A DNA stretch of 64,000 bases from contig JAFRJC010000087.1 of the NCBI GenBank assembly GCA_017432445.1, forward strand, positions 18,483 to 82,482. Reading direction: 5' to 3'. The position numbers were made by a program, and so were the translations under genes. The notes beneath the pieces are model-generated. The model was not told the DNA's origin, made no database searches, and saw nothing but the letters and a program-made list of their open reading frames with translations. The DNA is from Eggerthellaceae bacterium (GTDB lineage Bacteria > Actinomycetota > Coriobacteriia > Coriobacteriales > Eggerthellaceae). Position 1 is the first letter of the stretch. The number at the start of each line of letters is the position of its first letter. Shown here in pieces: positions 35,213 to 61,730 of this stretch.

Positions 35213-35572
35213 CGTGCTATTTTGCGCCCCAAGGGGCACATTATTAGTATCGTCAAAAGTCAGATGCTCTCCGAGCTTGGCGCTATTGGACAGCGGTGGT
35301 CATTTCCATTGACCGCGCTCGCAACGCACAGGTATAAGGGCTGATCGTGGATGATTGCTTGTTCAAGTACATCCACCCCCGTGTGCAATGCTGCGATTTC
35401 GATAGCTTGTATACGAACCACTTCTTCCTCCGAATTGGAGCGAGCATTATGATGCTTGTTTGACCACTCTCTCACCAACAATTGAATTTCCCTTGTAAGG
35501 GGTAGAAAACACCTTGACCAGCATGATAAGATGCATGCCGATTTGTGTCGCTTCAAAGATATAGGGGTCGTT

Positions 35573-48000: not shown

Positions 48001-51000
48001 GCCCGTCTCGTCTGCCTGCGTGCGATAGAGCGGATTGCTTGCCTGCACCGTGAAGCCGGAAGCCGAGTGCTCCACGCCGTCGTAGTCCACAGCTTCAATC
48101 GCGCCGACAACGGTTACCACCACGGTCTCGGTTATGCGGTTGATGACGAGCCCGCCATCTTGCACGACGAAGGCCACATCGACGTTGCCGCTGTTCGAGT
48201 TCGCGAAATCGGCCTCGGTCAGGCCCATGGCGTACGTGCCGGCATCAGTCTTGGCGACGCGCATCTGCGACGCGTCCTTCTTCGCCACGAGGTCGCGCTC
48301 CACGTCGAAGGCCGGGCTGGACGATATCGCGGTATAGCCCTCGGCCACGTGCTCCTGCCCGTCGTAGGTCACCGCTTCGGGGAAGTCGCCCTTGATCGTG
48401 ACGATGGCCTGCGCCTTCGCGATGTCCACATAGCCGTCTGTGACCACGAACGTGACTTTGGCAAAACTCTCGTTCTTGTTTTCGAACTGCTCGGGCGAAA
48501 GGCCCATGGGCGCATAGCCCGCATCGGTCGCCGCGACCTCGGCGCTGCCCGTGAATGCGAAGTCTGCCTCGGTATAAGCCGGATCGCTCGCGGTGAACGT
48601 GTATCCGCTCGCCGCGTGCTCGTTGCCATCGTAAGTTGCAATCTTGCCGTCACCGGTGATGGTGACGACCACCTCGTCGATCGGCGTGATGGTCAGGCTG
48701 CCGTCGGTGACGATGTTAAACGTCGGGTCGTAATTGTCGTTTTTGTTGGTGAACTGGGAGGCGTCCAAGCCCATCGTGTACACGCCGGCCTGGGTGCCCG
48801 CAGCCTTGGCATTGCCGGTAAACGTGAAGTCGGCCTCGGTGTAAGCCGTGTCGCTCGGAGTCGCCGTATAACCCTCAACGCTCTGCTCCGCTCCCGAGTA
48901 AGTCACGGTTCCGGTAGCGCCGACGATGTTGACCTGCACCTTCGCAGGCGTCACCTCCTGGCGCCCGTCGACGACCGTCACTTCTCCCAGCTCGAAGTTG
49001 CTCGTGTCCGCAAGGCTGAACTGGCTTGCCTCAAGCCCCATCTCGGTGGCGCCAGCATCCGTGCGCGCGGCTTCGGCCACGCCGCTGAACTGCAGGTCGG
49101 CCACCTCGAAGGCCACGTTGTCAGCCATGACGTCGTAGCCGGAAACGCTGTGCTCCTGCGCGTCGTAGGGCACGCTGGACACATGTCCGGTCACAGTCAG
49201 GTTCACCGTCGGCTTGGTCACGGTCAGACGCCCGTTGCTCGCGTGCGTCGTCACATAGTAGCGGTTCGTGTCGTATGAGCCCACGCTCACGGAAAGCTCG
49301 TCGTCGTAAGTGCCCGCATTCACGCCAGACGCCCTGCCGGAAATGCTGTAGGAGATACCTTCGGGCAGCTCGTCAACCTTTTCGCCTGCCACCGTGAAGC
49401 TCATGGCGGGTTCGTCGTTGACCTTGGCCTTGCCGTCGTAGGCTACCCGGGCGTTGGCGCCCGTTGCCGTTATGGTGACGTTCTTCGCCCACACGGCGTA
49501 CAGCACGTTGCTTTCCTCGTCGACCTTGTCGACCGTCACGGCACCGCCCAGCTTGAAAGAGACGCGGTTATCGTCGCCCGGCGAAAGCGACCAGCCAACG
49601 AGCGTATAGCCCTCGCGCGAAAGCTCGTCTCCCAAGCTCAAGGTGCTCGTCTTGTTCACGGGGATCGTCTGCGAGGGGATGGTGCCGTTGCCTCCATTGG
49701 GGCTGTAGCTTATCTGGGCTGTCACGTCGTAAGTCACGTATTCGGCTATAAGATGCACGGAGCTTCCCTGTTCGCCGCGTACGATGCAGTCCTGATTGAC
49801 GGTGAAAGTCTGGCCGGGGTAGCACAGCGCCCCCTGCTTGCCGTCAACGCGCACGACGCGCCAGCCCACGAACACCTTGCCCTGAGGAGGTGTGGGGGCG
49901 TCCTTGGCGGTGACCTTCGCCCCGTCGGTGTAGAGCGCATAATCGCTCGGGGCTCCCTCGCCCTCGTTTGCGTCGTAGACAACGGAAACGTCTTCGCCGG
50001 TCGTCCAACGTGCAACCAGGTGAAGGTCGCCCTGCACGCCTGCATCGAAATTCCACGGCACGCCGTCGGCCGCATCCACGTTCCAGCCGGTCAGCGTATA
50101 ACCCTCGCGAACCGCCTGCATCAGCGACGAGCCTGCGATCGCGTCACCGTACTGGACCCAGAAGTCATCGACCTGCCCCTGGGGCAGCGTGCCGCCCGCC
50201 TCGTCGAGCGTCACATGGAACCATTTCTTCATCCAGCCGGCATACACGACCAGGTTGTTGGCCGGCATGGCCTCGTAGGTGGTGAAGCTGTGCACGTTCC
50301 AGTCCGATTCCAACTCGGCACGCAAATCGTCCGAAATCGGATTGCCGAACGAGACGTAGGTCGTGCACTCGGGGTCGGCGAACCAACCCACGAACTCATG
50401 CATGCTCGCCTCGTTGGCGTTGCCCGGGAAGGCGGGCGCAGCTGGAGCCTGCACGCCCGAAAGCGATTGCTCGAACAGGCGGCTGACCGTGCCGATGCTG
50501 CCCGACGAGCCGTTGCGGAAGTCGATGTCGTAGCTTTGCCGCTGGTAGCGTATTCCGAGAGGTGAGGAGTAGTTGGCATTGTTGCCGGATTTAGCCGTAG
50601 ACCAACTGCCAGAGGTACCCGAGGAGTTATTGCTCTGGTATTCGGCCACCTTGAAGCCGTTGTACTTCTCGGTGAAGGTGAACTTTCCGCTCGAGGAACT
50701 CGCATAGCCCCGGTCGCTGGGCTCTTCGGGGTAGCTGCCGTCGGCGTTCTGCAGGTAGAAGTTAAAGGTGCCGCCTACGGCGCCGTTGGTCTCAAACGTG
50801 ATCGAGGTCATATAGCCATCGCTGTCGGGCAAGATGAACTCGCCTAGGAAGGTCATGCCCGAACTGGAGTACTTCCACGTGCCTTCCGGCCAGCTGTAGC
50901 CGTACCTGCTCAGCGTTTGACCGTACAGGCCGCTGATGATCAAGCGCGCCTCCTGCGAACCGCGCGTGTAGCGCACGCCGTCGTAGGGCGCGCCATTGTA

Positions 51001-53508
51001 CGTGTACGTATACGTGGTGGCAGTCTTGCCCTTCAGCTGCACGTACGAGCCATCGACCAGGCCGTAATACGTGGTCGATGTATTGGTTGAATCCGTGGGA
51101 GTGTAGGTGTTGCCCTTTTTCGTGTAGCGTGTACCGGTGTAGGTGACCTCGGTCTTCCAGAGCCAGCTGCCCGTCTCGTAGTAGTAGCTGTACGCCGTCT
51201 GTGACGTGCGCGAAAGCTCCACGTACTCGCCATTAACGTAGCCGTACTGCGTACCAGAGGTCGAAGTTGTGGAGGTGTAGGTATAGCCGGTCTCGCCGAT
51301 GCCCTTGAAGGTCATCGTGATCAGGTCGCGGTCGTAGTATACGTTGAGCACGGTGGAGCCGTCGGCAGCCACCGTCGCCTGGGAGTCGGTCTTGGCGCTG
51401 TTCAGGTGGAAGCCCTGGTATTTTTTCGCAAGATCCGCATCGGTGGGCACCACGACCTCGTCGGTGTAGGAGCTGCGCTGCGCCGATTCCTTGTAGTCGT
51501 AGGTCTTGTCAGCGTCGGCGGCGTCCTTGTCGTCGCTGACGCGCTGCTGCCAGAAGATCACGGTATAAGCTGCGCTCGCCTTCTTCCAGCCAGCGTAGGC
51601 CGTTGTCTTGGTGTTGTAGGCGCGCGTGAAGTCGAAGGTCTGCGTGCACGCCGCATCCGCGTACCAGCCAGTGAAATTGTAGCCGGCGCGTTGCGGGTCG
51701 GCTGGACGCGTGGGAGATTCGTCAAAGCCCACGTACTCGGGAGCCGTGTAGCTGGCGCCGCCGCCCGCGCCTCCGTCGTTCTCGTCGAAGTACAGCCAAT
51801 AAGCCTTGCCGAACACGGGATACAGCGTCGTGTCGTCAGATAGCGTCAGGTTCTCGCCAGCCGGGAACTGCACTTCGGTTGCCGCGGGGTCTTCCGTCCA
51901 GCCCAGGAAGCGCTCGTCATCGTTGACCGAGGTGGCAGAATGGACGCCCACGGCGGCTACGGCCTCTGCAGCTCCCTTTTCCGCCGTTGCCTTCACGTTG
52001 GTAAGTACGGGCCATTCGGCGTCTGCGCCGGCACGCCCGTTCATGAGCGTCGCGTAGAACACGGTGTTGATCTCGCCCACCACGTCGATGGTCGCGTTGC
52101 GCTCGATGGTTTCGACCTTGCCGAACTGCACTGCATCGCTCGTGCCGCGCACGTACCAACCCGAGAACTCCTCATGCTCGGCCAGCTCGGGAACGGGCGG
52201 CCTTACCAAGGTGTCGCCTTCCTTCACGATCTGGGTTGCAGGCTCTCCGTTCACCAGATACTCGCTGGTGCTGCCGGCGGCATCCGTCAGGAAGAAGCGA
52301 TAGGTTGAGCGATACGAGGCGATAAGCTCCACCTCATCGATGAGCACGGCCTCCTCGTCTTCAGCGGGTTGCTCCACTTCGGGCGCCTCGCCCTCGATTA
52401 TCACGATGGCATACACCGAGAACTCGTCGCTGGTAAACGAAATCGAGTTCTGCGCGGTGCCCGACGCCCCCGAGCCCACTACATCAGCAGCGCCGCCATC
52501 GGCCACATGCACCACGGCCACGTCCTGCTCGTCGCTGCCGTTCGCCGCCGCGATATCGGAAGCAGCCATGGTCACCTGGATGTCTGTCGCTGGCTCCACC
52601 TCGTGGGAGACGCCGTTTTCGTCTGTATAGGTGAAGGTGATGTCAACCGCCTTCACGGCCACGGCGCTCGCGTTCACCGCGTCTTCGACGGCGTCGATGA
52701 CCTGGGCGGCGGAAACCGGACTCACGTGCATCTGCGTACCGGCGGGAAACGCCCCCTCGGGCGCGCGGACGCTCACCGTCACGCCGTTCGCGCTGCCCTT
52801 GAAGGTCTGCGCGGGCATGTCCTTGGCCTTCTCGGCTTCGTCTTCCTGCTCGTCCCCCGTCACCAGGAACGTGCTTTCGGCAGCCTCGTCGCCGTTCTCG
52901 ACTGTTTCGTTGGTCTCATCACCCGTGAATAAGACGTCTTGCCCCTCATCGGCTGTTTCTTCGGGCTGTTCGGCTTCGGTCGACTCGCCCGCCTCGGGCT
53001 CGCCTTCTTGCTCGTCGACCACATTAGAGTCTTGCCCGCTTTCCTGGCTCGTCTCCGCTTCAGGCCCCTCGACCTGCGCAGCCTCGTCTTCGACGACGCT
53101 CTGTTCGGAGACCTGCTGTTCGACAGGTGCCTCTTCCTCGTCTCCAGAAAGCTGGATGGCTAGCGCATCCTGCTCCTGCGGCACCGGCTGCTTCGCGACC
53201 TCGACCTTTGGCTTGTTCGCCTCGGCCTCCTCTTCGGCGGCCTTCTTCGCCGCCTCCTCTTGTGCGGCAGCTTCGGCCGCCGCATCGCCCGCGACCGCCC
53301 AGCTGATCGCAGCTACGTTCCACGTCATCAGCGACAGGCATATGACCAGCAAGATGGCGATGACCTTCCCCTCGGGAGTCTTCACGCCATCCATGATTCG
53401 ATTGACGAGGCCCTTCTGCATGATTCCTACCGTTCTCCTAGGTTTTGGCGGCTTGTCCGCCAGCCTTTGCAGCACCCTGCCCTCACTGCCTTTCGGGTGT
53501 TTGGGCAT
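36034..53508 (-). CDS. giant (5,824 aa) cell-surface adhesin: N-terminal TM/signal, acidic spacer, Listeria-Bacteroides repeats, ~45 MBG-type repeats, MucBP-like domain, 3-TM C-terminal tail
   Basis: Single uninterrupted 17,475-nt ORF. A likelier start is the ATG at 53421 (MQKGLVNRI...), which is preceded by AGGAGAA. See the repeat features. The MucBP-like segment is YTLTIEYRYENGDQAA...INGYQPD. No LPXTG is present. Confidence 0.9.
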   Translation of the reverse strand: MPKHPKGSEGRVLQRLADKPPKPRRTVGIMQKGLVNRIMDGVKTPEGKVIAILLVICLSLMTWNVAAISWAVAGDAAAEAAAQEEAAKKAAEEEAEANKPKVEVAKQPVPQEQDALAIQLSGDEEEAPVEQQVSEQSVVEDEAAQVEGPEAETSQESGQDSNVVDEQEGEPEAGESTEAEQPEETADEGQDVLFTGDETNETVENGDEAAESTFLVTGDEQEDEAEKAKDMPAQTFKGSANGVTVSVRAPEGAFPAGTQMHVSPVSAAQVIDAVEDAVNASAVAVKAVDITFTYTDENGVSHEVEPATDIQVTMAASDIAAANGSDEQDVAVVHVADGGAADVVGSGASGTAQNSISFTSDEFSVYAIVIIEGEAPEVEQPAEDEEAVLIDEVELIASYRSTYRFFLTDAAGSTSEYLVNGEPATQIVKEGDTLVRPPVPELAEHEEFSGWYVRGTSDAVQFGKVETIERNATIDVVGEINTVFYATLMNGRAGADAEWPVLTNVKATAEKGAAEAVAAVGVHSATSVNDDERFLGWTEDPAATEVQFPAGENLTLSDDTTLYPVFGKAYWLYFDENDGGAGGGASYTAPEYVGFDESPTRPADPQRAGYNFTGWYADAACTQTFDFTRAYNTKTTAYAGWKKASAAYTVIFWQQRVSDDKDAADADKTYDYKESAQRSSYTDEVVVPTDADLAKKYQGFHLNSAKTDSQATVAADGSTVLNVYYDRDLITMTFKGIGETGYTYTSTTSTSGTQYGYVNGEYVELSRTSQTAYSYYYETGSWLWKTEVTYTGTRYTKKGNTYTPTDSTNTSTTYYGLVDGSYVQLKGKTATTYTYTYNGAPYDGVRYTRGSQEARLIISGLYGQTLSRYGYSWPEGTWKYSSSGMTFLGEFILPDSDGYMTSITFETNGAVGGTFNFYLQNADGSYPEEPSDRGYASSSSGKFTFTEKYNGFKVAEYQSNNSSGTSGSWSTAKSGNNANYSSPLGIRYQRQSYDIDFRNGSSGSIGTVSRLFEQSLSGVQAPAAPAFPGNANEASMHEFVGWFADPECTTYVSFGNPISDDLRAELESDWNVHSFTTYEAMPANNLVVYAGWMKKWFHVTLDEAGGTLPQGQVDDFWVQYGDAIAGSSLMQAVREGYTLTGWNVDAADGVPWNFDAGVQGDLHLVARWTTGEDVSVVYDANEGEGAPSDYALYTDGAKVTAKDAPTPPQGKVFVGWRVVRVDGKQGALCYPGQTFTVNQDCIVRGEQGSSVHLIAEYVTYDVTAQISYSPNGGNGTIPSQTIPVNKTSTLSLGDELSREGYTLVGWSLSPGDDNRVSFKLGGAVTVDKVDEESNVLYAVWAKNVTITATGANARVAYDGKAKVNDEPAMSFTVAGEKVDELPEGISYSISGRASGVNAGTYDDELSVSVGSYDTNRYYVTTHASNGRLTVTKPTVNLTVTGHVSSVPYDAQEHSVSGYDVMADNVAFEVADLQFSGVAEAARTDAGATEMGLEASQFSLADTSNFELGEVTVVDGRQEVTPAKVQVNIVGATGTVTYSGAEQSVEGYTATPSDTAYTEADFTFTGNAKAAGTQAGVYTMGLDASQFTNKNDNYDPTFNIVTDGSLTITPIDEVVVTITGDGKIATYDGNEHAASGYTFTASDPAYTEADFAFTGSAEVAATDAGYAPMGLSPEQFENKNESFAKVTFVVTDGYVDIAKAQAIVTIKGDFPEAVTYDGQEHVAEGYTAISSSPAFDVERDLVAKKDASQMRVAKTDAGTYAMGLTEADFANSNSGNVDVAFVVQDGGLVINRITETVVVTVVGAIEAVDYDGVEHSASGFTVQASNPLYRTQADETGVLDYAYSGSSAVKGTNAGTYPMGLARSGFANLNQNFTDVKFEVTDGELTIRKLSVNVAITGNSATREYTGAEQSVEGFDVKCSSELYTRDDFTVNGEVKAARTDAGTTAMGLSHDRLVNLNNNFDVVFSVTDGSLTITPVQKMVVVSVKGNSQTLVYNGTSQKVEGYTVTGISDARYKESYFAFDGSEVASGIDVGSYPMSLAAEQFKNLSDNFAWVEFLVQDGGLEIVPADVTVKVVGQQVTTVYDGQEHVASGFTTFESGSSLYDAASWTTFASAGGEEEQMPSVALVDAGTENMGLTSERFENTNPNFNVTYDVTDGFVTVLPLKVGVSVDGHVGVAPYDGKAHVVEGWDAQADSELFDVADITFTGKASASQTDVGTAYMSLAADQFGCDNENFDVAFAVASDGYSQVTPADEVVVTIIGHNATGAYDGEAHAVSGYDVLISSDVYTEADFTGPEQQAATASQTDAGTAYMGLSADQFANANANFSKVTFEVTDGYQTVTKRPVVVAVTGNTAVHDYDACEHVAEGFEVDIQDDLYTTDDFTAPDRAKASVALVHAGTKAMGLSADQFTNKNDNFAPVFTVTDGWVSVSPIAVTVQIEGACAENDYDALEHVVSGYTARASVNEGLAEGSQPLFDIAANVTFTGEARAARLKAGTTKMGLSAEMFEVADNPDFSSVTFDVADGYQIIRPVRVEVAITGATSTVAFDGQEHAVDGYDIVADVNRGRADDRLVFDPSLVRYEGTPHAARTDAGTTEMGLSADKFTCSDTVNYSAVTFTVTDGYQTVEPIAATVSIVGARSTADYDGDAHSVEGYTASITPSLYTEADFVFSGEAVAARTDAGTTYMGLSADQFANTNANFSDVVFDVVDGYQTVTKRSVAVSIVGEKLSAPYSGKEQSVEGFKASTADSLYDVDEFVQFAGEAVARGTDAGSYPMKLSVGQFANTSNNFDVAFDVVDGGLTIVSADQVIVTVTGKRASGTYTGRPLTATGYDVSISDERYKAEDFSFSGTATATRTDAGTTQMGLAASQFTNLDPVNFPDVVFVVEDGFVEVARATANVNVKGHTDQVVYDRAAHTVSGYDVTIESSTGAYGESDFELAADADPSVTGTDAGEYPMGLTEGTFGPGAATSQFANTNQNYDVVFQVVDGRLTVTKQKAVVTIAGAVLNVAYDREEHVVSGYTVQSSNPAFDVETDLVARVAPDDAKAAGVNAGTYAMGLVEGDFQNANKANVDVELRLTDGRLVISPVTNRVVVNIVGDAKTFAYDGLEHAASGFEVSANNALYRVDASEGATDFSFTDDAAVKSTNAGFFAMGISADDFQNANPNFENVTFKVTDGSLRINPAQVKVSVAGGVLETVYSGRTQAAEGYTLSSDSELYRQDDVAFSGNATVTAVDAGTYAMGLTSDQFANSNPNFNVTFEVKDGCLSIAPLEVNVSVIGHTGVNAYDGTEHSTSGYDVEASSPLYKASFLAHDGVAYAARTDAGTTDMGLTSDQFANSNPNFSVTAINVTDGYQQVTPADEVVVTITGHVVKADYDGLEHVARGYDVAISNPLYKAADFIFTGEAQAALTDAGTASMGLTAEQFSNINTNFENVEFKVEDGSVTVNPITAVVTIRGVNSTTTYDSTEHEVEGYTATSSSPLYAVGADAADFTFTGEAKAARTDAGTTYMGLAADQFANDNPNFENVTFRVVDGYQTVEPATAQVVITGHSAVCDYDGAEHSVEGFDAEISDELYNEDDFTFTGEAKAARTDAGTTHMGLAPEQFANANPNFANVTFRVVDGFQTVVPINATVTIVGATTTVDYDGATHMARGFTATADVNGSAGEAASAARPLYDVVNDVRFDGKAQAERADAGTTYMGLAPEQFANVNPNFADVTFVVADGYARVNPLVVKVSIAGATATKSYSGSEQKVEGYIASADTSLYDVDANVGFAGDATVQGTNAGLYPMGLSPADFTNGNENFDVSFLVTDGWLSIAPAGQVVVNVVGNSATGTYTGQALEAQGYTLQFSDWRYTASNITFTGDAKVSRTDAGRESMGLAADQFANDDRVNFPDVVFAVADGFVEVAPATAVVTVEGSRLSTTYDGSEHGVEGYDTSITSSTGLYAESNFHLAEGVGASAAGTNAGTYPMGLAEGTFGPGESGPFVNDDANYDVTFIVSDGWLAIGKARATVTVTGKTLACSYDGAEHAAVGYTAQSSNALYRVEPVEADEAAGTPAAGADFAYSGPLAASGVDAGSYPMCLDSAQFENVNPNFDDVEFIVVDGGLTIAPAAVTVTIVGNTATRSYTGEEQQVEGYRLTTTNSLYNSDYVLFEGEATARGENARARYAMGLSAEQFANVNPNFDVAFEVQDGWLAISPIDAVVTITGNHDAVTYDGAEHSAKGYEAHFSTPLYTADDFEFAGTSEVARTDAGTSYMGLAPEQFANVNPNFDHVEFRVADGYLTIVPAGDVVVTITGRNGLFSYDGAEHLAEGFDAEISDPLYTADDFAFAGGASAARTDAGTSYMGLVANQFSNTNPNFENVTFKVVDGYLTVAPINVSVSVTGSIDKATYDGIEHSVSGFTATSSTPLYTASDFVFTGTSEVARTDAGTSYMGLAPDQFANANPNFAEVMFSVVDGYQTVIPTTAQVVIVGHSTTATYDGEAHVAEGYEANISGSLYTADDFTFLGSDKVVAVGAGTYPMGLSADQFANTNPNFENVVFSVTDGGLRVDPLAVQVRVVGTRAAVSYTGSEQSVEGYEASADSELYDVARGVAFSGAARASGVRAGDYPMGLAASQFANTDPNFDVSFDVADGQLSIAPAGGVVVYITGHEASRVYDGEEFVVEGYDVQASDELYSSSNIEFTGEARAALTDAGTAEMGLAAEQFANTNPDFSDVRFVVADGRARVTPAPATVEVAGGVAEVEYDGTEQRVEGFELSSGSALYDLGSVAFSGEAAAARTDVGTTNMGLSADQFANTDPNFDVSFEVADGHLRVTPVAERVVVRIAGATASGTYCGTERSVSGYEVLEVSNPLYAPSDVALVGADRAAGTNVGTYPMGLSAGSFANQNANFADVAFEVEDGSLQITPAAVTVSVEGAHDALVYDGKEHAVSGYALAASSDLYDARASTSFTPASGAVLVGGEVAAVRTQAGTTNMGLAAEQFANTDPNFDVEYVVSDGYLSIAPAGGVVVRITGHTAEAVYDGDEHAAEGYDFEASDPLYTADDFAFTGGASAARTDAGTSYMGLSPEQFSNASGDFEDVVFDVVDGYVAVGRASATVTVKGNTATAVYDGAEHSVSGYTATSSTPLYAVEGDAAGFEFTGSAAAARTDVGTTNMGLAASQFANADPNFEGVVFEVEDGYQRITPNGEVVVKVAGHSDEAVYDGEEHSVSGYDFEASNPLYTADDFAFTGEAKAARTDAGTTPMGLSADQFANTNPNFENVVFEVADGGLKVNPVRVTVYVAGSSAEIDYDGEEHEISGYELSLGEPVGMRVASDATSRYDLSSVSYTGNAKAARTDVGSTPLVFEAGDFANSDTNYDVTFAIADGNLKVNAIPATVHIAGNVEAAEYDGTEHIAKGYKVKSVSSVGNLYTEDDFAFSGEAAAARTDVGTTNMGLSADQFANTNPNFNNVTFAIADGSIQVTKRSVQLVSASDSKVYDGAPLVRHEVEGDEGFVEGENVGYFFSGSQTEVGTSENTFSYVRTDALENNYNVSESFGTLTVTESPSGAEQVEPDAGQLAYTLTIEYRYENGDQAASAHVEQLAEGVRFEVVSPEINGYQPDYRSLVGAMPAGDLKIVVIYTAARPVQAAQPAKATEPASSGGTPEVSERDTAPVFSRMGEVVVDDGVPTVRTIEDDEGTALTDGSEGSWSLFDVVATVLAVLVALVLAVGLFGRKRRDGDDGNGPDGEDAALRVAEHETAADNERNDDARAFDRHRGLRILALAIGVVAIVLLFVTQDFTQTMALFDRWSVLFAIICIAQIVVAFLARKKRKDDDGEGDEEGAGSAQVQAA
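36903..49482 (-). repeat. coding tandem array of ~45-46 MBG (YGX-type) domain repeats, ~91 aa each
   Basis: Counted by eye from the recurring unit V(T/S)(I/V)xGxxxxxxYDGxEHxVxGYxxxxSxxLYxxxDFxFxGxAxAxxTDAGTxxMGLxxxQFxNxNxNFxxVxFxVxDGxLxIxP. Confidence 0.8.
49483..52185 (-). repeat. ~7 Listeria-Bacteroides (Flg_new / InlB B-repeat-like) repeats
   Basis: Recurring (G)Y.F.GW motifs: EFSGWYV, FLGWTED, GYNFTGWYADAACTQTFDF, FVGWFADPECT, GYTLTGWNVD, VFVGWRV, GYTLVGWSLS, with ...LYAVW ends. Boundaries are approximate. Confidence 0.65.
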
Positions 53509-53787: not shown

Positions 53788-53904
53788 GTACGGGCCGATG
53801 ATTCGGGCCGCTCCGGAGCACTAAGGAAACGACATGGGACGACAAGGGGCGAGGCGCAACATGCGTCTCGCCCCTGTCGCCTTGGCGCGATTCCCCTCGA
53901 GCGC

Positions 53905-54984
53905 TTAGAAGGCGATGCCCTCGAGGGCAAGCCGACGCTCGAGCGCTTCTTCGTGGATGCTGAAGCGCAAGGCCGTCTCGCCGGTGATGCGGCCTTCCTT
54001 CGCAAGCTGGAAAAGGCTCTGGTCCATAGTGCGCATGCCGGCGGCACCGCCCGCCGCGATGACCGAGTCGATCTGGTAGGTCTTCTCCTCGCGGATGAGA
54101 TTGCGGATAGCCGCATTGGAGATCATGATCTCGAACGCAGGGACAAGCCCGCCGTCAATCGTCGGCACGAGCTGCTGGCAGACGATGGCCTGCAGTACAA
54201 GCGAGAGCTGTATGCGGATCTGGCGCTGCTGCTCTGCGGGGAACGTGTCGATGATGCGGTCCACCGTACCCGAAGCGCTGGTGGTGTGCAGCGTGCTGAA
54301 CAGCAGCTGGGCCATTTCGGCAGCGGTCATCGCCGTGGCTACGGTCTCGGCGTCGCGCATTTCGCCCAGGAAGATGATGTCAGGGGACTCGCGCAAAGCC
54401 GAGCGCAGGGCCTCGTCGTATGTGGCCACGTCGGTAGGGATCTCGCGCTGCGTCACGATGCAGCTTCCGTGTCTGTGCACGTACTCGATCGGGTCTTCCA
54501 TGGTGATGATATGTCCCGAGCGCTCGTGGTTGAGCCGGTCGATGATGCAGTTCAGCGTCGTGGTCTTGCCGGACCCCGCCGGACCGGTGACCAGCACCAG
54601 GCCCTTCTGGAGCTTGCTCAGGCACAGCACGTCTTCGCCGATCTCGAAATCGGCCGGATCGGGCAGGCCAAACGGGATCACGCGGATGACGGCCGAGAGC
54701 GACCCGCGCTGGCGAAACACGTTCGCGCGGAAGCGGCCGATTCCGCCGATGGCGAACGAGAAGTCCTCGTCATGGTTCACGTTTCTCAGCATCAGCTCGA
54801 TGTCGCGGTTGGCCAGGCCGTAGATGGCCTCGATGACCTCGCGTGTCTGCGCGGGCTTCAGCGCTTCGCCTTCGGTACGCACGAGCTGGCCCAACGCCGA
54901 GTACGCAATGGGCATGCCGGCCTCGATGTAGATGTCGGAGGCCTTGTTGTCGATCATCTGCTTGAGCAACGGCTCCAGTTCCAT
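53905..54984 (-). CDS. pilT: PilT-family type IV pilus retraction-type ATPase
   Basis: 359 aa. Motifs: ASDIYIEAG, Walker A GPAGSGKTT, Asp box ITMEDPIEY, Walker B DIIFLGEMRD, His box STLHT and the PilT signature AIRNLIRE. Confidence 0.9.
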   Translation of the reverse strand: MELEPLLKQMIDNKASDIYIEAGMPIAYSALGQLVRTEGEALKPAQTREVIEAIYGLANRDIELMLRNVNHDEDFSFAIGGIGRFRANVFRQRGSLSAVIRVIPFGLPDPADFEIGEDVLCLSKLQKGLVLVTGPAGSGKTTTLNCIIDRLNHERSGHIITMEDPIEYVHRHGSCIVTQREIPTDVATYDEALRSALRESPDIIFLGEMRDAETVATAMTAAEMAQLLFSTLHTTSASGTVDRIIDTFPAEQQRQIRIQLSLVLQAIVCQQLVPTIDGGLVPAFEIMISNAAIRNLIREEKTYQIDSVIAAGGAAGMRTMDQSLFQLAKEGRITGETALRFSIHEEALERRLALEGIAF

Positions 54985-55051
54985 GGCTTCGATCCTTTCG
55001 TCATCGGGATCGCTTTCCCGCAGGCGATCGGTCGCTTGCGGGAAAGAGATC

Positions 55052-55600
55052 CTAGTCCACTATCAGCAGCTGTCCTTCCGGCGGCTCCTCGTTTTGAACC
55101 GCAGTCATCTTCCATTTGTCGACGCGGTACGTGCCGTTGTCACGCACTACGAGCACGATGTTGAGCAAGCGGCCGTTGTCGCAGGCGAACTCGGCGGTTA
55201 TCTGCTGCCCGTCCACCGAGGCCGAAGCCCTCACCTTTCCACCCGCCGCCGCGCGCGCATCGGCGCACAGCTTGTCGATCGCGCCTTGCACCGCGCGTAT
55301 GCCCTCCTGGCCCGCATCATCTGCAGACCCCGCCGAGCGCGCCTCGGCCAGCAGGGCGTCGGTCCCCGCGACGAACTCCTGGGCTGCACGCTCGTCGAGG
55401 TACAGCTCGGTCATGGCCTGCGCCTGGCGCTGGGACATGACAAGGGATGCGTTTGCCGTGGAAAGAGACAGCACGGCGAGCACGGCAAGGGAGATGATCA
55501 CCACCAACGCGAACACCGAGATGGAGCCGATGCGCACGCGCTGCGGCCGACCGCCGGAAACCTGGGGCAAGGTACCCGAGTTGAGCTGGAACTTCGCCAT
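55052..55600 (-). CDS. single-pass membrane protein, ComGG/PilX-like minor pseudopilin candidate
   Basis: N-terminal hydrophobic helix (IGSISVFALVVIISLAVLAVLSL) followed by TELYLDERAAQEFV, which resembles the post-helix segment of ComGG/PilX. Starts 3 nt after the upstream stop. Confidence 0.5.
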   Translation of the reverse strand: MAKFQLNSGTLPQVSGGRPQRVRIGSISVFALVVIISLAVLAVLSLSTANASLVMSQRQAQAMTELYLDERAAQEFVAGTDALLAEARSAGSADDAGQEGIRAVQGAIDKLCADARAAAGGKVRASASVDGQQITAEFACDNGRLLNIVLVVRDNGTYRVDKWKMTAVQNEEPPEGQLLIVD

Positions 55601-55603
55601 CGT

Positions 55604-56062
55604 CTACGCCCCGCTCTCGTACTTGGCCGTCTGGACGGTGTAAAGCGGCTCGACAGCCACGCCCGCTTGCGCGGTCTCGGCTTCGCTTGCGCTCCCGTCG
55701 GCATCCGAATCGACGCTTTCGGTTCCGTACACGCTTATGGTGGCGTAGTAGATGACGCCTCCCGTACGCCTCTCGGGCGTGACCTGGCACACCACGCGTA
55801 AATCGCCTTCCATGAACTCGCTTTTCACGCCAGTCGGGTCGGCGCAGAACAGCTCGGCCGTGGCCGTGGCGGCGGCCACGGCGTCAGTGAGGCTGCGGCT
55901 GGCGTTGGCGCGTTCGGCAGACTCGGCGAACAGCTGGGTGAACACGGCCAGCGAAGCCATGATGATCACGAGCAACAGCATCGCCTCCACGAGGAAGGCG
56001 GTTCCCGACCAGCGGCTATGCAGCGCGGCGGACGTGCGCTTCGTGGGCAGCTCGAAACTCAT
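55604..56062 (-). CDS. prepilin-like (pseudopilin) protein candidate
   Basis: RWSG-TAFLVEAMLLLVIIMASLAVF is a class-III-signal-like G/xxFLVE + helix motif, offset by one residue from canonical GFTLIE. An ATGA overlap links it to the upstream gene. Confidence 0.5.
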   Translation of the reverse strand: MSFELPTKRTSAALHSRWSGTAFLVEAMLLLVIIMASLAVFTQLFAESAERANASRSLTDAVAAATATAELFCADPTGVKSEFMEGDLRVVCQVTPERRTGGVIYYATISVYGTESVDSDADGSASEAETAQAGVAVEPLYTVQTAKYESGA

Positions 56063-56574
56063 ACGGCTCCCCCCTGCGTGCTGCGCAGGGCGACTTCGAG
56101 AGTGCCCTTGTCGGTGGTCATGGTCAGAAGCTCGCCGTCGAAGGCGAACTCGAAGGCATCCGAGCGGAACAGCGGCGTTGCGGAAGTGGGATTGTAATCG
56201 CGCCCGGAGATAGCGTATTCGGTGAAGATGGTTCCCTTGTACTGGTACACACGCGTCTCGAAGGTGCCGTACTCGAGCGATTCCACCAGCACGAGCGCCG
56301 GCCCTTCCGGACCCTCGCCCCGCTCTACCGCATACACCGAGTCGTTCACGTGCACGGTGTTGGCCAGAAGACCCGATTGCAGATGCACGTCATCGGTGTA
56401 TGAGTGGGTCTGCACGACAGCGCTGTAGATGCCCGCGCCAGCCGCCAACCCTCCCATGAGCGCGATGAAGAACACTGCCATGAGCACCAGCATGAACAGC
56501 TGGGAGGGCGCACGATGCACCTCGGGCTTTTTCGACCTCTCGAAGGCAGAGACCATGGCGTAGTTGATGTTCAT
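56059..56574 (-). CDS. single-pass membrane protein (minor pseudopilin / assembly protein candidate)
   Basis: 171 aa with one N-terminal TM (LFMLVLMAVFFIALMGGLAAGAGIY). ATGA overlaps at both ends (56059-62 and 56571-74). Confidence 0.5.
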   Translation of the reverse strand: MNINYAMVSAFERSKKPEVHRAPSQLFMLVLMAVFFIALMGGLAAGAGIYSAVVQTHSYTDDVHLQSGLLANTVHVNDSVYAVERGEGPEGPALVLVESLEYGTFETRVYQYKGTIFTEYAISGRDYNPTSATPLFRSDAFEFAFDGELLTMTTDKGTLEVALRSTQGGAV

Positions 56575-56897
56575 CGCGGCCTCACCACCACCGACGGAGG
56601 CACGTTATCGCCAAGCCACTCGTAGTTCACGACGTAGTCGTTATGGTTGATGACGAGCCCGTATTCCTCTTCCAAGTGCGAGAGCATCGAAGGATAGGAG
56701 CCCTCAATCGCGCAGCACTGCACGGCCGCGGCCACCACGGCTTGCCGTACCGAGGCCGTGGCCTGGTCACGCGCTATCGAGCGCGACACCGTCACCGCAA
56801 AGACCACGTTGATCACGATCAGCACCGCCAAGATGGCGTAGATGATCCGCATGCGCCTTCGCCGCGCCAGCTCCTCGTATGTCAGCTCGTGGTACAA
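56571..56897 (-). CDS. small single-pass membrane protein
   Basis: 108 aa. RRRRMRIIYAILAVLIVINVVFAV is followed by a soluble domain. Start is TTG at 56897 or ATG at 56852. Confidence 0.45.
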   Translation of the reverse strand: MYHELTYEELARRRRMRIIYAILAVLIVINVVFAVTVSRSIARDQATASVRQAVVAAAVQCCAIEGSYPSMLSHLEEEYGLVINHNDYVVNYEWLGDNVPPSVVVRPR

Positions 56898-56957
56898 CCT
56901 ACCTCTTCCCCTCAGAAACGTGGCAGCTTACTCCGTGTAAAGTGCCACATTTTGCGT

Positions 56958-58010
56958 TTAGCCAATTGAGCCCATGATTCCCACCAGCGGCAACATGACG
57001 GCGATGAGCGTCACGCCGATGGAAATCGTCAGGAAAACAGCTAGCACAGGCTCGACGTGGTCGAGCGATTCGTCGATCTGAAGCACGGCATCGTCGAAGA
57101 ACGTCTGGGAGAGCTGCGCGAGCGTTTCGTCGGCGCTTCCCGCGCGCATTCCCACGTTCAGCATACGGGCGTACAGCGGTTCGAACACGCCGTTCTCGCT
57201 TATGGCCTGGGCGAGGCTGCGTGGGTTGTCCAGATCGACCATGCTGTCGCGGGCAGTCTCCAGGCGCCCGCGCAATTTGGCGTGGTCGACCGTCTTGATG
57301 GCTTTCGTCATGGCCTCCTCGTTGGTCACGCCCGACGACACGAGGGTCGCGAGCGCCGCCGTGAAGCGCGACAACGCCAGCTGGTACATGGCGCGGCTGG
57401 TCATTGGAAGCTTCTCGAACAAGCGCATGACCCGGTTGCGCCCGGTTTCGCTGCGCGACGAGAATGACAGGTACAGCGCTACGGCCGCCACGACTACTGT
57501 GATGACGAGGGCCACCCAGCCTATGGCCGTGGACAGGCCGATGGAGGCGAAGGACTGGGAGGCGAGCGAGCCCGCCATGTTCTCGTAGACGCCGGCGAAA
57601 ACCGGCAGGATGAACAGTACCGTGAACAGCAAGATCAGAGCCATGATCACCAGGAGCGCAGCCGGGTATCCCACCGACGAGCGCAGTTTGGTGAACATGC
57701 GGTCCTCTTCGTCGTAGTAGAGCTCCAGGTTGCGCAATACCTGCTCCAGATGGCCCGACTCTTCGCCGGTCTTGGCCATCTCCACCGCATAGGCGGGGAA
57801 CCCACCCGTGACATCCATCGACTGCCAGAAGGGCTCGCCGGCGACGAGGTGGAGGTACATGTCGTTGCACACTTCCTGGAACCGCGACCGCTCGCGGTTT
57901 TCGGACAACATCAGCACTGCTTCCTCGTTCTGGATGCCTGCCGACAACATCGTCGCCACGCTTCCGCAGAAGGCGGAAATGGCGCTACTCTCAAGCAGTT
58001 TCTGTGCCAT
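56958..58010 (-). CDS. type II secretion system F / PilC-family platform protein
   Basis: 350 aa with two T2SSF halves (FPAYAVEMAKTGEESGHLEQVL and FEPLYARMLNVGMRAGSADETL) and 3 TMs. Confidence 0.85.
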   Translation of the reverse strand: MAQKLLESSAISAFCGSVATMLSAGIQNEEAVLMLSENRERSRFQEVCNDMYLHLVAGEPFWQSMDVTGGFPAYAVEMAKTGEESGHLEQVLRNLELYYDEEDRMFTKLRSSVGYPAALLVIMALILLFTVLFILPVFAGVYENMAGSLASQSFASIGLSTAIGWVALVITVVVAAVALYLSFSSRSETGRNRVMRLFEKLPMTSRAMYQLALSRFTAALATLVSSGVTNEEAMTKAIKTVDHAKLRGRLETARDSMVDLDNPRSLAQAISENGVFEPLYARMLNVGMRAGSADETLAQLSQTFFDDAVLQIDESLDHVEPVLAVFLTISIGVTLIAVMLPLVGIMGSIG

Positions 58011-58055
58011 AGGTACTATCGTTTCCTCTCGGGTCCAAGCTGCTCGACTTATATT

Positions 58056-59036
58056 CTAATACGTATAGCGGTCCGTATAGGCGCTCGCGTCGCCAACATA
58101 TTTCGTCGCCCCAGTCGAGGCGAAAGTCACGTCGCAACGCGACCACGTGTTGGGGTCGACGGTGAACGCCGCGCAATGCCAGGTTCCGTCGATGTAAACC
58201 ATGGTCCACGCGTGGTAGACCTCATCCTTTCCCACGTAGCCTGTCATGATCTTGGCGGGGATGCCCATGGATCGCAGCATCGCCACCGAAAGCGACGCAT
58301 AGTCAAAGCAGATGCCGCGGCCGGTGGTAAGCGTTTCGTCCGGATCGGGCACGTAGCCGCTCTTCTCGGCCAGCTCACGGGCTTTGTCATTGTCATAGGT
58401 GACGTTAGCGGCAACGAATTCGCAGATTGCCTTCACCGCCTCGGCTACGTTACCAGCCTTGCCGGTAAGCTCTCGCGCCTTGTCGACGCAAGCGCTCGAC
58501 GAGTTGTAGTTGCAATACATGTTCGAGATCAGGAAGGGCGCGAACTCGGATTCCAGGACCACGTCGGCCTCCGTTGCATACAGCTCCACGTAGTTGCTGC
58601 CCGATGTGTTCTGCATGATGCGGAACGTGTAATAGCCGTCGCCCATGTTGAGCGGGTAGACGGTTTGGGTGCCGTCGTTCGGCAAGTCGTAGTTGTAAGT
58701 CTGGTCGCCCTGATTCGCCTGGAACTTCAGCCGCGCGCTGCTAGTCGCCCGCGCCACGACGTAGCCGCCACTTACGTGTTCCACGTTGATATCGGGTTCC
58801 TCACTGGAAGCAGGCGAGAGCATGGGCACGATCACGCCGTCGGGCTGAGTGAAGTCGGCTCCGCTCACTTCGTCGCCTCCGCCGCCGAAGGGCAAGCTAA
58901 GCGCTTCGGCTTTCCCCGAGCTACTGGACCCTTCGCTCGAGCCGCTACAAGCTGGTATGAACGCAATGACCAGCGCAACGGAAAAGACTAAAAGCCCCTT
59001 GAGCGCTATAGAAGCTATGCGTCCCCCGCGTTTCAC
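58056..59036 (-). CDS. transglutaminase-like cysteine protease domain lipoprotein
   Basis: Lipobox AFIPAC/SGSS. Transglutaminase core GRGICFDYASLSVAMLRSMGIPAK...YHAWTMVYIDGTW...D (Cys-His-Asp). Confidence 0.8.
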   Translation of the reverse strand: MKRGGRIASIALKGLLVFSVALVIAFIPACSGSSEGSSSSGKAEALSLPFGGGGDEVSGADFTQPDGVIVPMLSPASSEEPDINVEHVSGGYVVARATSSARLKFQANQGDQTYNYDLPNDGTQTVYPLNMGDGYYTFRIMQNTSGSNYVELYATEADVVLESEFAPFLISNMYCNYNSSSACVDKARELTGKAGNVAEAVKAICEFVAANVTYDNDKARELAEKSGYVPDPDETLTTGRGICFDYASLSVAMLRSMGIPAKIMTGYVGKDEVYHAWTMVYIDGTWHCAAFTVDPNTWSRCDVTFASTGATKYVGDASAYTDRYTY

Positions 59037-59222
59037 CGATATCCGTTCTTCACGCGTCCTTCTGGCCGGGCATCATCATTTTGCCCGCAATGCCCTTCAT
59101 TATACAACCTTGCGAATTGGAATTATATGCAAGGTGATGTGGTAGTATTTGGTACGCTGTAAAGATAAACGATACGAAAGCCTCTGGGTTTCTATCGTTT
59201 GCGAATCGAAGGGTTGCTGGGA

Positions 59223-59942
59223 ATGATCGTCGCTTTACACGATGCTATCGCGCTCGTTGACGGCGATGTGCGGTCGGTTGTGCGCGAACGGGCGCAGGCT
59301 GCCGGGTTCGACCAGGTGGAGTTTACTCGCTTCGAAAGCGCCCTCGACCTCGTCGACCAGGTTGCGGACAAGGCCTCCGCACCCCTCGACCTAGTTCTAG
59401 TCCCCTACGAGCTACCAGGGCTTTCGGGAGTCCAGGCCATAGCAGAAGCTCGCAGCGTCCAGCCCGAGTTTTACGCAGTAGCCGTCGACGACGAGCCCGT
59501 TCATGCGGCTGAAGCCGCTCACGAAGGTTTTGAAGAATATCTGGTGCGACCGCTCGTCACTGCTGTTTTCGAGCTTGCCATGACAAGGGCCTTCGCGGCG
59601 CTGCGCGAGCTATACGACTCGTCGGCGCTGATCGAAACACGCAGCGGGGCTCGGCGCATCGCGCTCGACGACGTTACGTACTGCGAGACTTCGGGACATG
59701 ACCAGCTCGTGCATTTGCGCAACGGGCATGCCGTGGCGGGGCGCTACTCTTCTCAGGCGCTGTTCAATCTCTTGGCGGTCGACGACCGGTTCTTCAAGGT
59801 CGGAAGCTCCTATATCGTCAACCTACATGAGGTAAGCCGCTTGCATACGCCTTCGGGCGAGCTCGTACTTGCTGATGGAACACCGATTTCCGTTCCGCAG
59901 CGCCTTAGGAAGAATTTGGAGGAAACCCTGCTCAGCCAATGA
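59223..59942 (+). CDS. LytTR-family DNA-binding regulator with degenerate (pseudo-)receiver domain
   Basis: C-terminal LytTR domain (IALDDVTYCETSGHDQLVHL...FFKVGSSYIVNLHEV). The N-terminal REC-like fold has LDLVLVPYELPG, where a canonical receiver has DLVLLDIxMPG. ORF 59199..59942; the ATG at 59223 is preferred. Confidence 0.8.
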   Translation: MIVALHDAIALVDGDVRSVVRERAQAAGFDQVEFTRFESALDLVDQVADKASAPLDLVLVPYELPGLSGVQAIAEARSVQPEFYAVAVDDEPVHAAEAAHEGFEEYLVRPLVTAVFELAMTRAFAALRELYDSSALIETRSGARRIALDDVTYCETSGHDQLVHLRNGHAVAGRYSSQALFNLLAVDDRFFKVGSSYIVNLHEVSRLHTPSGELVLADGTPISVPQRLRKNLEETLLSQ

Positions 59943-60053: not shown

Positions 60054-60494
60054 TTGGAACGCTACAGGAGGAACGTGATCGGCATCAATCAAACATACGA
60101 AGCGCAGAAGACGCGTAAACCAGGCCTGAGGACGTTTCTTGCAGCAATTGCCGCCGTCCTGTTGGCGATAACCCTCACATTTGGATTCGGCGCCCTCCAA
60201 AACGACGTTCCGCAGGCATATGCGACGATTTACCCTGCGGGGGAAAGCGCTCAAGTTGACGGTCAGGCAAGCGACGAATCCGCCGCAACCGAGGAGGAAG
60301 CTGCGGAGACCGAGATTCTCGATGACGAAGGAACGCCGCTTTCTTCGGGCCTCGGCGGAGGGGAACCCATTTCGGGTGGCGTAGGCTTCGTTCCTGTCGC
60401 CATCGTCGGCATCGCCGTCGTGGCGTTGTTCTTCCTCGTTCTCATGCGCAGGCTCAATAGCAACATCAAGGATATGAGCCGAATGTTCAAGTAG
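60054..60494 (+). CDS. small secreted acidic protein with adhesin-like C-terminal anchor motif
   Basis: N-terminal TM/signal (AYA/TI), an acidic spacer, then ILDDEGTPLSSG...VPVAIVGIAVVALFFLVLMRR. Start is TTG at 60054 or GTG at 60075 (after AGGAGG). Confidence 0.55.
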   Translation: MERYRRNVIGINQTYEAQKTRKPGLRTFLAAIAAVLLAITLTFGFGALQNDVPQAYATIYPAGESAQVDGQASDESAATEEEAAETEILDDEGTPLSSGLGGGEPISGGVGFVPVAIVGIAVVALFFLVLMRRLNSNIKDMSRMFK

Positions 60495-60596: not shown

Positions 60597-61730
60597 TTAG
60601 ATCATGCTCATCTGGCCGAGCGTGACAACATACCACTTTTCCCAGCTCGAGCAGTATTTCTGGGCATTTGCGAGCGTGATGGTGTAGCCGTAACCGTCGG
60701 AAAGCCCGCGTACGTGCGTGTCAATCGCCGATTCCCACGAGCTCCACTCCCACGCCAGGCCCACAGGATCTACGTCCGCAGCGCCCCAGCCCCAGGCATT
60801 GTATGACCTCACGCAAAAGCGGCCTTTCGAACTCTCGATGTGTGCAATAGCCGGCGACCATCGCGGATCGACGCAATAGCGCCACGATGCCTGGGCGAAG
60901 GCTCTTCCAAGTCCGGCCATGGGAGACCCCGCAAGGTAGGCATCGATGCGCGGAGCCCATTCCGCCACGAACTCGCCCTCGGTCGCATACCAGTCGGCGC
61001 CATCGGCCACCCCAATTGCAGAGGGATCCTGCGCCAAGCATGCTGAGATTCCCTCATACTGCCGAGCGCTACGCGAATCCTGCGCCTCTCTCAGCGCGCT
61101 TTCAGCTTCGAAAAGACGTTCCTGAAGCTGTTCCTGGCTTTCTTCCAGCCTTTCCTTTTTGGCCTCGAGCTCGGCGCGTTCCTCTATCGTTTTGTTCAGC
61201 TCGCTTAGGCTCCGCTCGGTCACGGCATCGAGATACTCGCTCATCTTGATGAATTCCTCGAGGGAATCTGCCCTTAGCAACATCTCTATCGCCTGGTAGC
61301 CGTTGTTTTGGAGCTCAAATAGATAGCGGGCTGCCTTGTCTGCCTTCTGCTCCTTTTCGGCGATCTGCTCGTTGAGGCGCTTCTCCTTGACGCGGGCAAT
61401 CGTTTCCTCCCAGCCTCTGTCATCAGCAATCTCGAGCGCTTCCTCGTAACGCAGGGTTAGCTCCTCGATCTGAGAGGTGGGCGCCGCAAGGTGTGGCAAG
61501 ATAAGCACACTGTCTGCATACGCCAAACCCGTTTGCGCAGATGCGCAGGCGAAGGAGACAGCAAGGGCTGCAGCTAGCCTTGGAAGCGCGCGCGCACAGC
61601 CGGCACGTCTGCTAGTTGCAAATCGGGTATGAAGGATTGCCCTTTTCAAACGCCCTCCACCGCCTGCATATGCTCTCACGTATCGGCTGGTCTTTCCTGA
61701 ATTATGGCCGTTCAATCCTACTACATCCAT
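60597..61730 (-). CDS. PcsB-like secreted coiled-coil protein with C-terminal putative peptidoglycan hydrolase domain
   Basis: Signal peptide (AVSFACASAQTGLAYA/DS), a ~200-aa heptad-rich region, and a C-terminal ~130 aa with DPRWSPAIAHIESSKG...YNAWGWG. A GGAGG RBS lies before the ATG at 61730. Confidence 0.7.
   Translation of the reverse strand: MDVVGLNGHNSGKTSRYVRAYAGGGGRLKRAILHTRFATSRRAGCARALPRLAAALAVSFACASAQTGLAYADSVLILPHLAAPTSQIEELTLRYEEALEIADDRGWEETIARVKEKRLNEQIAEKEQKADKAARYLFELQNNGYQAIEMLLRADSLEEFIKMSEYLDAVTERSLSELNKTIEERAELEAKKERLEESQEQLQERLFEAESALREAQDSRSARQYEGISACLAQDPSAIGVADGADWYATEGEFVAEWAPRIDAYLAGSPMAGLGRAFAQASWRYCVDPRWSPAIAHIESSKGRFCVRSYNAWGWGAADVDPVGLAWEWSSWESAIDTHVRGLSDGYGYTITLANAQKYCSSWEKWYVVTLGQMSMI

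Follow-up and report, generated by a model that had tools for sequence, protein, structure and literature searches.

A conserved Coriobacteriia gene block with a PilT-family ATPase as its sole local motor: a candidate type IV filament machine

Seven minus-strand genes at positions 53905–59036 of a 64,000-nucleotide (nt) window of Eggerthellaceae bacterium DNA (assembly GCA_017432445.1, contig JAFRJC010000087.1; coordinates count from the first letter of the window) encode a PilT-family ATPase, a platform protein, a pilin-like protein of 152 amino acids (aa), three further single-helix proteins and a transglutaminase-like lipoprotein. These genes are inherited together as a tight block, and a PilB-type ATPase is missing from it, either lost or never present. 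The seven-gene layout, in which PilT is the sole local motor and is accompanied by a surface transglutaminase-like lipoprotein, was previously undescribed. We give about an even chance to the reading that the block is a self-contained, Coriobacteriia-specific type IV filament machine with a PilT-clade motor and a link to surface attachment.

Block layout, conservation and motor

The block consists of the following genes, given in the order of transcription.

58056–59036, minus strand: transglutaminase-core lipoprotein gene (326 aa), first gene of the block
56958–58010, minus strand: gene for a GspF/PilC-like polytopic platform protein (350 aa) with two T2SSF domains
56571–56897, minus strand: gene for a 108-aa bitopic protein, either an accessory protein or an atypical pilin-like subunit
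56059–56574, minus strand: DUF4860 protein gene (171 aa)
55604–56062, minus strand: gene for a 152-aa pilin-like protein of the GspI/EpsI type
55052–55600, minus strand: gene for a 182-aa protein, by position and pattern a possible GspK/PilX/ComGG-like minor pilin without Glu
53905–54984, minus strand: gene for a PilT-family hexameric ATPase (359 aa), last gene and sole ATPase of the block

The list of open reading frames (ORFs) confirmed the tight, co-directional packing described by the first-pass annotation of this DNA, with 4-nt overlaps at 56059–56062 and 56571–56574 and a 3-nt gap at 55601–55603, and the strings it had singled out (AIRNLIRE, SG-TAFLVEAMLLL and TELYLDERAAQ) are all present in the translations. 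High third-position GC, typical of real genes in this ~60% GC genome, was found in all seven. A scan for sigma-70 promoters gave no match in the block region.

Homologous loci (numbered with the prefix L) were gathered by searching one genome per species with a DUF4860 alignment of eight sequences, and by an exact-protein look-up combined with precomputed Pfam annotation of 10-kb flanks. The search gave 13 genome loci in which the order of the block is identical, each in a rumen or gut metagenome-assembled genome (MAG) of Eggerthellaceae or Coriobacteriia, and the look-up contributed ten further places in Eggerthellaceae and Atopobiaceae. The conserved order is transglutaminase, platform, 108-aa protein, DUF4860 protein, 152-aa type, 182-aa type and PilT; a transglutaminase in first and an ATPase in last position had been pointed out as unusual, and this order fits no described comG, pil, tad or type II secretion system (T2SS) layout. 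Because identical gene order recurs in the 13 genome loci and in further loci, the arrangement is not due to chance. Among the 13 genome loci the small proteins are 39–75% identical and PilT 77–88% identical; identity among orthologs is 64–88% for PilT and 66–83% for the platform. The DUF4860 protein of the window has a 100% identical counterpart in an Eggerthellaceae MAG, and named members of the 152-aa family come from Denitrobacterium, Caniella muris, Leptogranulimonas caecicola, Olsenella and Muricaecibacterium torontonense. A DUF4860 search toward Firmicutes, started from the most divergent member (L023), returned only five close matches, and a literature search found nothing relevant on a PilT system in Eggerthellaceae or Coriobacteriia or on the isolates that carry the block.

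Several loci depart from the simple layout. In the cultured M. torontonense (Atopobiaceae; L023) the run from platform to PilT is intact and the transglutaminase gene lies 4.5 kb downstream, among genes (12214–19261) for a PAS-GGDEF protein, a 986-aa hybrid histidine kinase, an HD/HD_5 response regulator of the HD-GYP type and an Hpt protein, a setting that suggests phosphorelay and cyclic di-GMP (c-di-GMP) control. The block of L014–L016 (4335–11737) is doubled in tandem, with two platform and two small-protein sets, the first of them without the 108-aa gene, one PilT and one transglutaminase gene; L008 (8–4789) shows a similar doubling on a contig that is cut at its upstream end. Genes for gyrA/gyrB, a PhoU-like protein and aspartate kinase stand a few kb from the block in L002, L014–L016 and L020, and the closeness to gyrA/gyrB in several relatives therefore places the block in the conserved chromosomal core, with no obvious mobile element. 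L019 is an exception, as integrase and conjugation genes follow its block.

The assignment of the ATPase to the PilT family was borne out by TIGR01420 (PilT/PilU), which scored 387.6 bits over residues 3–344 against a cutoff of 319.1. Other equivalog models stayed far under their cutoffs (ComGA 124.1 bits versus 300, GspE 121.9 versus 630, PilB 107), and the GspE match covers the ATPase core only. In comparisons with PDB sequences, the protein aligned over its full length with Aquifex PilT (314 bits), and PilB and GspE reached only ~80 bits. Walker A (GPAGSGKTT), GEMRD, the His box (LFSTLHT) and AIRNLIRE can all be read in its translation. The platform protein matches Pfam T2SSF in two stretches (130 bits) and falls under every NCBIfam equivalog cutoff (GspF 162.8 of 424, PilC 137 of 700, ComGB 108.6 of 240); its best NCBIfam match is GspF, and among solved proteins its closest relative is Myxococcus PilC (102 bits over the full length). 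PilT is the only ATPase of the block in every locus found (~20 loci). The best evidence for the pairing comes from L014–L016, where two platform sets have one PilT in common, an arrangement that speaks for PilT as the motor that belongs with the platform and against a retraction gene that strayed into the block.

Current descriptions of type IV filaments count an extension ATPase and a prepilin peptidase among the core parts and treat PilT as an accessory retraction motor (PMC6668835, PMC10191384). We scanned 43 likely genes of the window, picked by codon-position GC, against Pfam (three ORFs of 93–113 aa were left out), and the reported lack of such parts in the 64 kb held, as neither a second T2SSE ATPase nor a Peptidase_A24 or an N_methyl pilin turned up among these 43. 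The rest of the window is devoted to housekeeping and metabolism, including alanyl-tRNA synthetase (AlaRS), glyceraldehyde-3-phosphate dehydrogenase (GAPDH), transporters, radical SAM and similar proteins. No PilB-type ATPase or A24 peptidase was found in the Pfam-annotated 10-kb flanks of L014–L023 either. Taking the type IV filament core set (PMC10191384) as a whole, the block supplies the platform and, in the 152-aa protein only, the pilin fold; neither the window ORFs scanned nor the annotated flanks contain a PilB/GspE/ComGA/CpaF-type ATPase or an A24 peptidase. A truncated ORF at 3–887 was considered as ComEC and dropped, its beta-lactamase-fold domain being wrongly placed for ComEC.

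Small proteins and surface lipoprotein

We accept the 152-aa protein as pilin-like because it has a motif with an invariant Glu, a predicted pilin fold, structural matches to EpsI and recurrent sub-threshold matches to pilin families. A basic leader of ~20 residues precedes W-x-G-x-A-F-[LI]-[VI]-E, which is followed by ~20 hydrophobic residues. The family has 265 representatives at 50% clustering; the Glu is present in 148 of 148 diverse representatives, and in the same set the motif has Gly at -6 in 68% (Ser in 14%, Asn in 8%), Ala at -4 in 86% and Phe at -3 in 82%. Glu thus stands at +6 from Gly, and the family does not conform to the canonical class III signal peptide (Gly -1, Glu +5); the leader is predicted to be a class III signal peptide in all but register. 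In a six-frame scan of the window for class-III-like signals, the 152-aa protein was the sole match. Its AlphaFold2 model (67 sequences; predicted local distance difference test (pLDDT) score 87.6) consists of a 57-residue helix (18–74) and a four-stranded antiparallel sheet, and thus has the type 4 pilin fold of a long N-terminal helix on an antiparallel sheet. The top three Foldseek matches were all to the EpsI/GspI minor pseudopilin 2ret (probability 0.95–0.97, E 0.1–0.2), with template modelling (TM) scores of 0.59–0.61 normalised to the target. Scanned singly against Pfam, the 67 family members matched Tt1218-like pilin (11/67, best E 2e-4) and T2SSI (9/67, best E 5e-4) most commonly. A profile search of the family alignment against PDB sequences gave noise only.

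The first-pass annotation had counted four pseudopilin-like proteins, a description that is well supported for the 152-aa protein, plausible for the 182-aa protein by its conserved Gly before the helix only, and unsupported for the other two. Across 11 aligned orthologs of the 182-aa protein, V22, I24, G25 and S28 (VRIG before the hydrophobic helix) are invariant, as are Y67 and E70 of an ELYLxE helix and W163-K164-M165 near the C terminus. It has no Glu of the pilin kind, a pattern that is also that of GspK, PilX and ComGG. No Pfam or PDB sequence match was obtained, and a profile search against PDB gave noise only.

The remaining two families are built differently. The 108-aa protein starts with an invariant MYHExTY, followed by a basic stretch, a single membrane helix and a small head on the outside; its family comprises 322 clusters, nearly all of 108 aa, and corresponds to no Pfam family. 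AlphaFold2 predicts a helix-plus-hairpin ‘lollipop’ (pLDDT 90.8; helices 3–65 and 72–78, strands 88–93 and 102–107). Foldseek returned nothing significant for this model, the highest-probability match being the Thermus pilin PilA4 (probability 0.80, E 0.7), and a role as major pilin, which we considered, is unsupported. Pilin families matched none of 35 members of the family, and a profile search of the alignment against PDB sequences gave noise only. The 171-aa protein belongs to Pfam DUF4860 (PF16152; 39 bits versus a gathering cutoff of 25), a family for which a literature search found no mention, and shows a conserved cytoplasmic motif (AFERSK), a single membrane helix and, outside, a domain rich in beta structure; all 19 of its aligned homologs matched DUF4860 and none matched a pilin family. 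In both proteins, charged residues lie between the invariant N terminus and the membrane helix; to judge by the sequences, these N termini look like cytoplasmic binding peptides, unlike a cleaved prepilin leader. They may be assembly partners. Profile–profile comparison of the small proteins with each other detected no paralogy (probabilities 4–7%).

The lipoprotein (Pfam Transglut_core 83.5 bits, DUF553 53 bits) begins with a lipobox Cys and a conserved domain and ends in a papain-like core with Cys, His and Asp. The lipobox Cys is kept in 20 of the 21 orthologs that have their N terminus, having been lost in L001, and all 22 orthologs retain Cys (G[IV]C[FL]DY), His (YHAW) and Asp (R.D.TF) at the catalytic positions. 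The enzyme is very probably active, and its place is outside the membrane. Its closest solved relative is 3isr, a putative cysteine protease. The LapG equivalog model NF045674 scores 23 bits against a cutoff of 320, and only the generic Cys-His-Asp core is common to the two. A role as substitute prepilin peptidase was rejected on topology, because the leader is cytoplasmic and the lipoprotein extracytoplasmic.

Giant surface proteins and regulatory neighbours

Four features flank the block in the window.

53839–53881, minus strand: GC-rich hairpin that closely follows the pilT stop and probably terminates transcription ahead of the adhesin gene
36034–53508, minus strand: gene for a 5,824-aa surface protein, a frequent but facultative neighbour outside the conserved block
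59199–59942, plus strand: gene for a LytTR-family regulator with a degenerate receiver domain, transcribed divergently, the probable regulator of the block
60054–60494, plus strand: gene for a 146-aa small membrane protein (p146), a conserved partner of the LytTR gene

The start of the 5,824-aa ORF lies 396 nt from the pilT stop, as claimed earlier. The encoded protein contains three Flg_new repeats and tandem units of 88 aa, with a membrane helix at the N terminus and a membrane anchor at the C terminus; LPXTG was not found in it. The 86 nt after the pilT stop fold at -43.4 kcal/mol (z -3.8), and none of 200 shuffles folds as well; the U tract of the hairpin is weak, and a simple terminator scan did not list it. 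Because this stable hairpin stands directly 3′ of pilT, the adhesin gene is probably a transcription unit separate from the block.

Of ~16 distinct contexts with usable flanks, some of them not independent, 7 have a giant surface protein at most 10 kb from the block. These neighbours belong to unrelated families and lie on either side and either strand: Flg_new-type giants in the window, L003, L006 and L021 (homologs of the 5,824-aa protein adjoin the block only in these three relatives), a sortase with a SpaA/Cna_B/FctA giant in L014–L016 and L020, and a BspA-type leucine-rich repeat (LRR) protein in L010. No giant protein was within reach of the block in L002, L004, L005, L007, L013, L017, L019, L022 or L023. 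The adjacency looks well above what a random locus would give, a judgement of ours made without a computed background rate. An association of the block with giant adhesins is possible, but it is facultative.

Within the giant gene, 2 kb (38001–40000) have a GC content of 0.72 against ~0.60 elsewhere and encode repeats of ~88 aa (G.YPMGLSA.QFAN.NPNF..V.F.V.DG.L) with an MBG-type look and no Pfam match; a 264-nt tandem array of 2.6 copies follows at 40142–40839. Immediately beyond the gene lie a secreted BspA-type LRR and Big_2 protein of 501 aa (33591–35096, minus strand) and a homolog of the biofilm formation stimulator VEG (35531–35926, plus strand), both of which fit a surface and biofilm theme.

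LytTR regulators and the small membrane protein are steadier neighbours of the block than giant proteins are. The regulator of the window matches Pfam LytTR (36.7 bits) and, below cutoff, Response_reg (21 bits); one or two LytTR genes adjoin the transglutaminase gene in L001–L003, L005, L006, L017, L019, L021 and L022. Homologs of p146 hold the same position in L001, L002, L003, L006, L017, L019, L021 and L022. From its N to its C terminus, the protein consists of a helix, an acidic linker, an I-x-D-D-E-x-P-L motif, a second helix and a basic tail that is conserved. Its family (136–160 aa; window, L002, L003, L006, L017, L019, L021 and L022) carries I-x-D-D-E-x-P-[LM] 10–20 residues before the C-terminal helix, and the tail reads ..N.NI..M...F[KR]. 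The giant protein ends similarly (36430–36510, minus strand), with TIEDDEGTALTDG, then a helix, then RKRR, so that DDEGT[AP]L plus a helix is a pattern common to both. The motif could be a common anchoring or sorting signal, or p146 could be a membrane partner of the LytTR regulatory pair. Enzymes of c-di-GMP turnover (GGDEF/EAL/HD-GYP) occur near the block in three loci (L017, L019 and L023).

Readings of the block and minor neighbours

Among known machines, the T2SS pseudopilus (GspE/F/G–K) resembles the block in its GspF-like platform, in the 152-aa protein, whose best matches both in structure and in Pfam are GspI/EpsI, and in the way the Glu-less last protein recalls GspK; the block differs in its monoderm host, in having no GspE, C, D, L, M or G and in missing the GspF cutoff. 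The Tad pilus offers a precedent for one two-way ATPase, its motor CpaF serving both extension and retraction (PMC11300603, PMC6668835), and otherwise has an ATPase of another clade, a split TadB/TadC platform and Flp-type pilins, none of which is present in the block.

An ordinary type IVa pilus with scattered genes, in which the block would provide platform, minor pilins and retraction ATPase, and pilB, pilD and a major pilin would lie elsewhere, seems unlikely to us. It would agree with the finding that pilT and pilD often lie apart from other pil genes and that prepilin peptidases are common to several systems (PMC6668835), with a block that has no nameable major pilin, and with a view that spans 64 kb of this genome and 10-kb flanks elsewhere; the PilT with AIRNLIRE, the PilC-like platform and the GspI/PilV-class minor pilin fold are also those of monoderm type IVa pili, as in Streptococcus sanguinis and Clostridia. 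However, the platform gene is accompanied always by PilT and never by PilB in ~20 loci of two families, the doubled block of L014–L016 has two platform sets for one PilT, and PilB, PilD, PilM, PilN, PilO and a major pilin are missing from block and flanks. The platform also lies under all PilC, GspF and ComGB cutoffs, the small proteins are family-specific and non-canonical, the block PilT is linked to the platform as sole ATPase and the Glu of the pilin motif is at +6 from Gly. The first-pass annotation had instead proposed a machine dedicated to the extrusion, display or processing of the giant adhesin and p146, with the transglutaminase-like protease acting as LapG does on LapA, and this we consider improbable. 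The parts of it that stand are a derivation from type IV filaments, PilT as sole local motor, a platform and at least one pilin-like protein. Homologous blocks are linked to giant proteins in 7 of ~16 contexts, so that the refuting case named in that annotation, a lack of any such link in relatives, does not apply; DDEGT[AP]L precedes a C-terminal membrane helix in both adhesin and p146; and the intact Cys-His-Asp triad, the weak LapG similarity and the c-di-GMP enzymes near the block in relatives recall the LapG/LapD/LapA adhesin-release system with its c-di-GMP control, where a secreted papain-like enzyme is likewise encoded near a giant adhesin. Dedication to the adhesin itself is unsupported in view of the nine contexts without a giant protein, including the Atopobiaceae isolate locus L023, of giants of unrelated families on either side and strand with export and anchoring signals of their own (sortase with SpaA/Cna_B, or the N-terminal membrane segment of the window's adhesin) and of the strong hairpin after pilT. 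The LapG model stays at 23 bits versus 320, LapD and type I secretion genes were not seen, the host is monoderm, and conservation of the enzyme extends to loci that have no giant adhesin close by. A looser functional link of the block with adhesion is plausible.

A Com-like competence pseudopilus for DNA uptake under the LytTR regulator, as in streptococcal competence, is likewise improbable. Like the Com pilus (comGA–GG), the block is a minimal single operon of a monoderm that encodes a single short ATPase, a single platform and several small single-helix proteins in a row, similar in content and number (platform, then a ~108-aa protein and three small proteins), with a Glu-less last small protein and a prepilin peptidase outside the operon, as comC is unlinked. 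A LytTR-family regulator adjoins the block, and ComE and HdrR/BrsR are LytTR regulators of competence. Unlike the Com operon, in which ComGA is first, the block has a PilT-clade ATPase as its last gene, four small proteins instead of five, two of them with conserved cytoplasmic N termini, and an additional transglutaminase lipoprotein that has no Com counterpart; it is also found in Coriobacteriia. No ComG family model reached its cutoff for the block proteins (ComGA 124 bits versus 300, ComGB 108.6 versus 240, no ComGC–GG family matches for the small proteins), no comEA, comEC or dprA was found in window or flanks, and the neighbours indicate adhesion and c-di-GMP, not uptake of DNA.

The self-contained filament machine with a PilT-clade motor has evidence to contend with as well. 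All described type IV filaments assemble with a PilB/GspE/ComGA/CpaF-type ATPase and a prepilin peptidase (PMC6668835, PMC10191384); by sequence, only one of the four small proteins gives a pilin signal, and no block protein can be named as major pilin. In the 152-aa protein, the Glu is at +6 from the conserved Gly versus the canonical +5, all Pfam pilin matches of its family are below cutoff, and the Foldseek E-values of both the 152-aa and the 108-aa models are not significant. That the PilT-clade ATPase is the only motor genome-wide, drives assembly or movement in both directions and works with an obligatory surface transglutaminase-like enzyme in a distinct, unclassified machine is, in our view, less likely than not.

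If the PilT-driven filament reading holds, a PilT-type hexamer would dock under the platform as resident motor and move the 152-aa and 182-aa pilin-like subunits out of the membrane, possibly also back in, so that a short filament or pseudopilus would cross the thick wall. As partners in assembly or alignment, the 108-aa and DUF4860 proteins might take part, and the lipoprotein, outside the membrane, might act on the wall by remodelling it, or else cut or cross-link a substrate that is exposed there; these roles are guesses. Processing of the G-x-AF..E leader would fall to a prepilin peptidase whose gene lies at another site, for instance alongside a Tad locus. Expression of the block would be set by the LytTR regulator next to it together with the small membrane protein that partners this regulator, with ties to c-di-GMP enzymes in relatives. 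The output would be surface attachment or biofilm behaviour, which would account for the frequent yet optional adjacency to giant adhesins.

A platform wired to a PilT-clade motor alone challenges classifications in which the extension ATPase is core and PilT an optional add-on (PMC6668835, PMC10191384), and does so in a block conserved across a class of gut and rumen Actinobacteria. A PilT-only machine, if true, would overturn the rule that PilT-clade motors only retract. Either the block represents a new filament class, with a bearing on how the direction of ATPase motors is set, or PilT and platform are heritable apart from the rest of the machine. The block also assigns a context to DUF4860 and three unannotated protein families and ties a transglutaminase-like lipoprotein to a pilus-type machine. 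It also makes the surface-attachment biology of Eggerthellaceae and Atopobiaceae, two families with cultured carriers, a testable subject.

Between two LytTR genes, L017 (5917–6498), L019 (5904–6482) and L022 (5692–6219) encode a small protein of 175–193 aa that is absent from the window and has two membrane helices and a cytoplasmic domain with RRFYLS.EGIYNHEIGYA. In the window, 60597–61730 and 62850–63971 (both minus strand) encode paralogous secreted proteins with a long coiled coil and weak matches to the PcsB coiled coil and a peptidoglycan hydrolase model. Their common C-terminal domain reads DGADW...W..RID.YLAGSP..G....F..A.W.Y.VDPRWSPAIA..ES, and between the two genes lies one for a methyltransferase of the TP_methylase family (61949–62803, plus strand).

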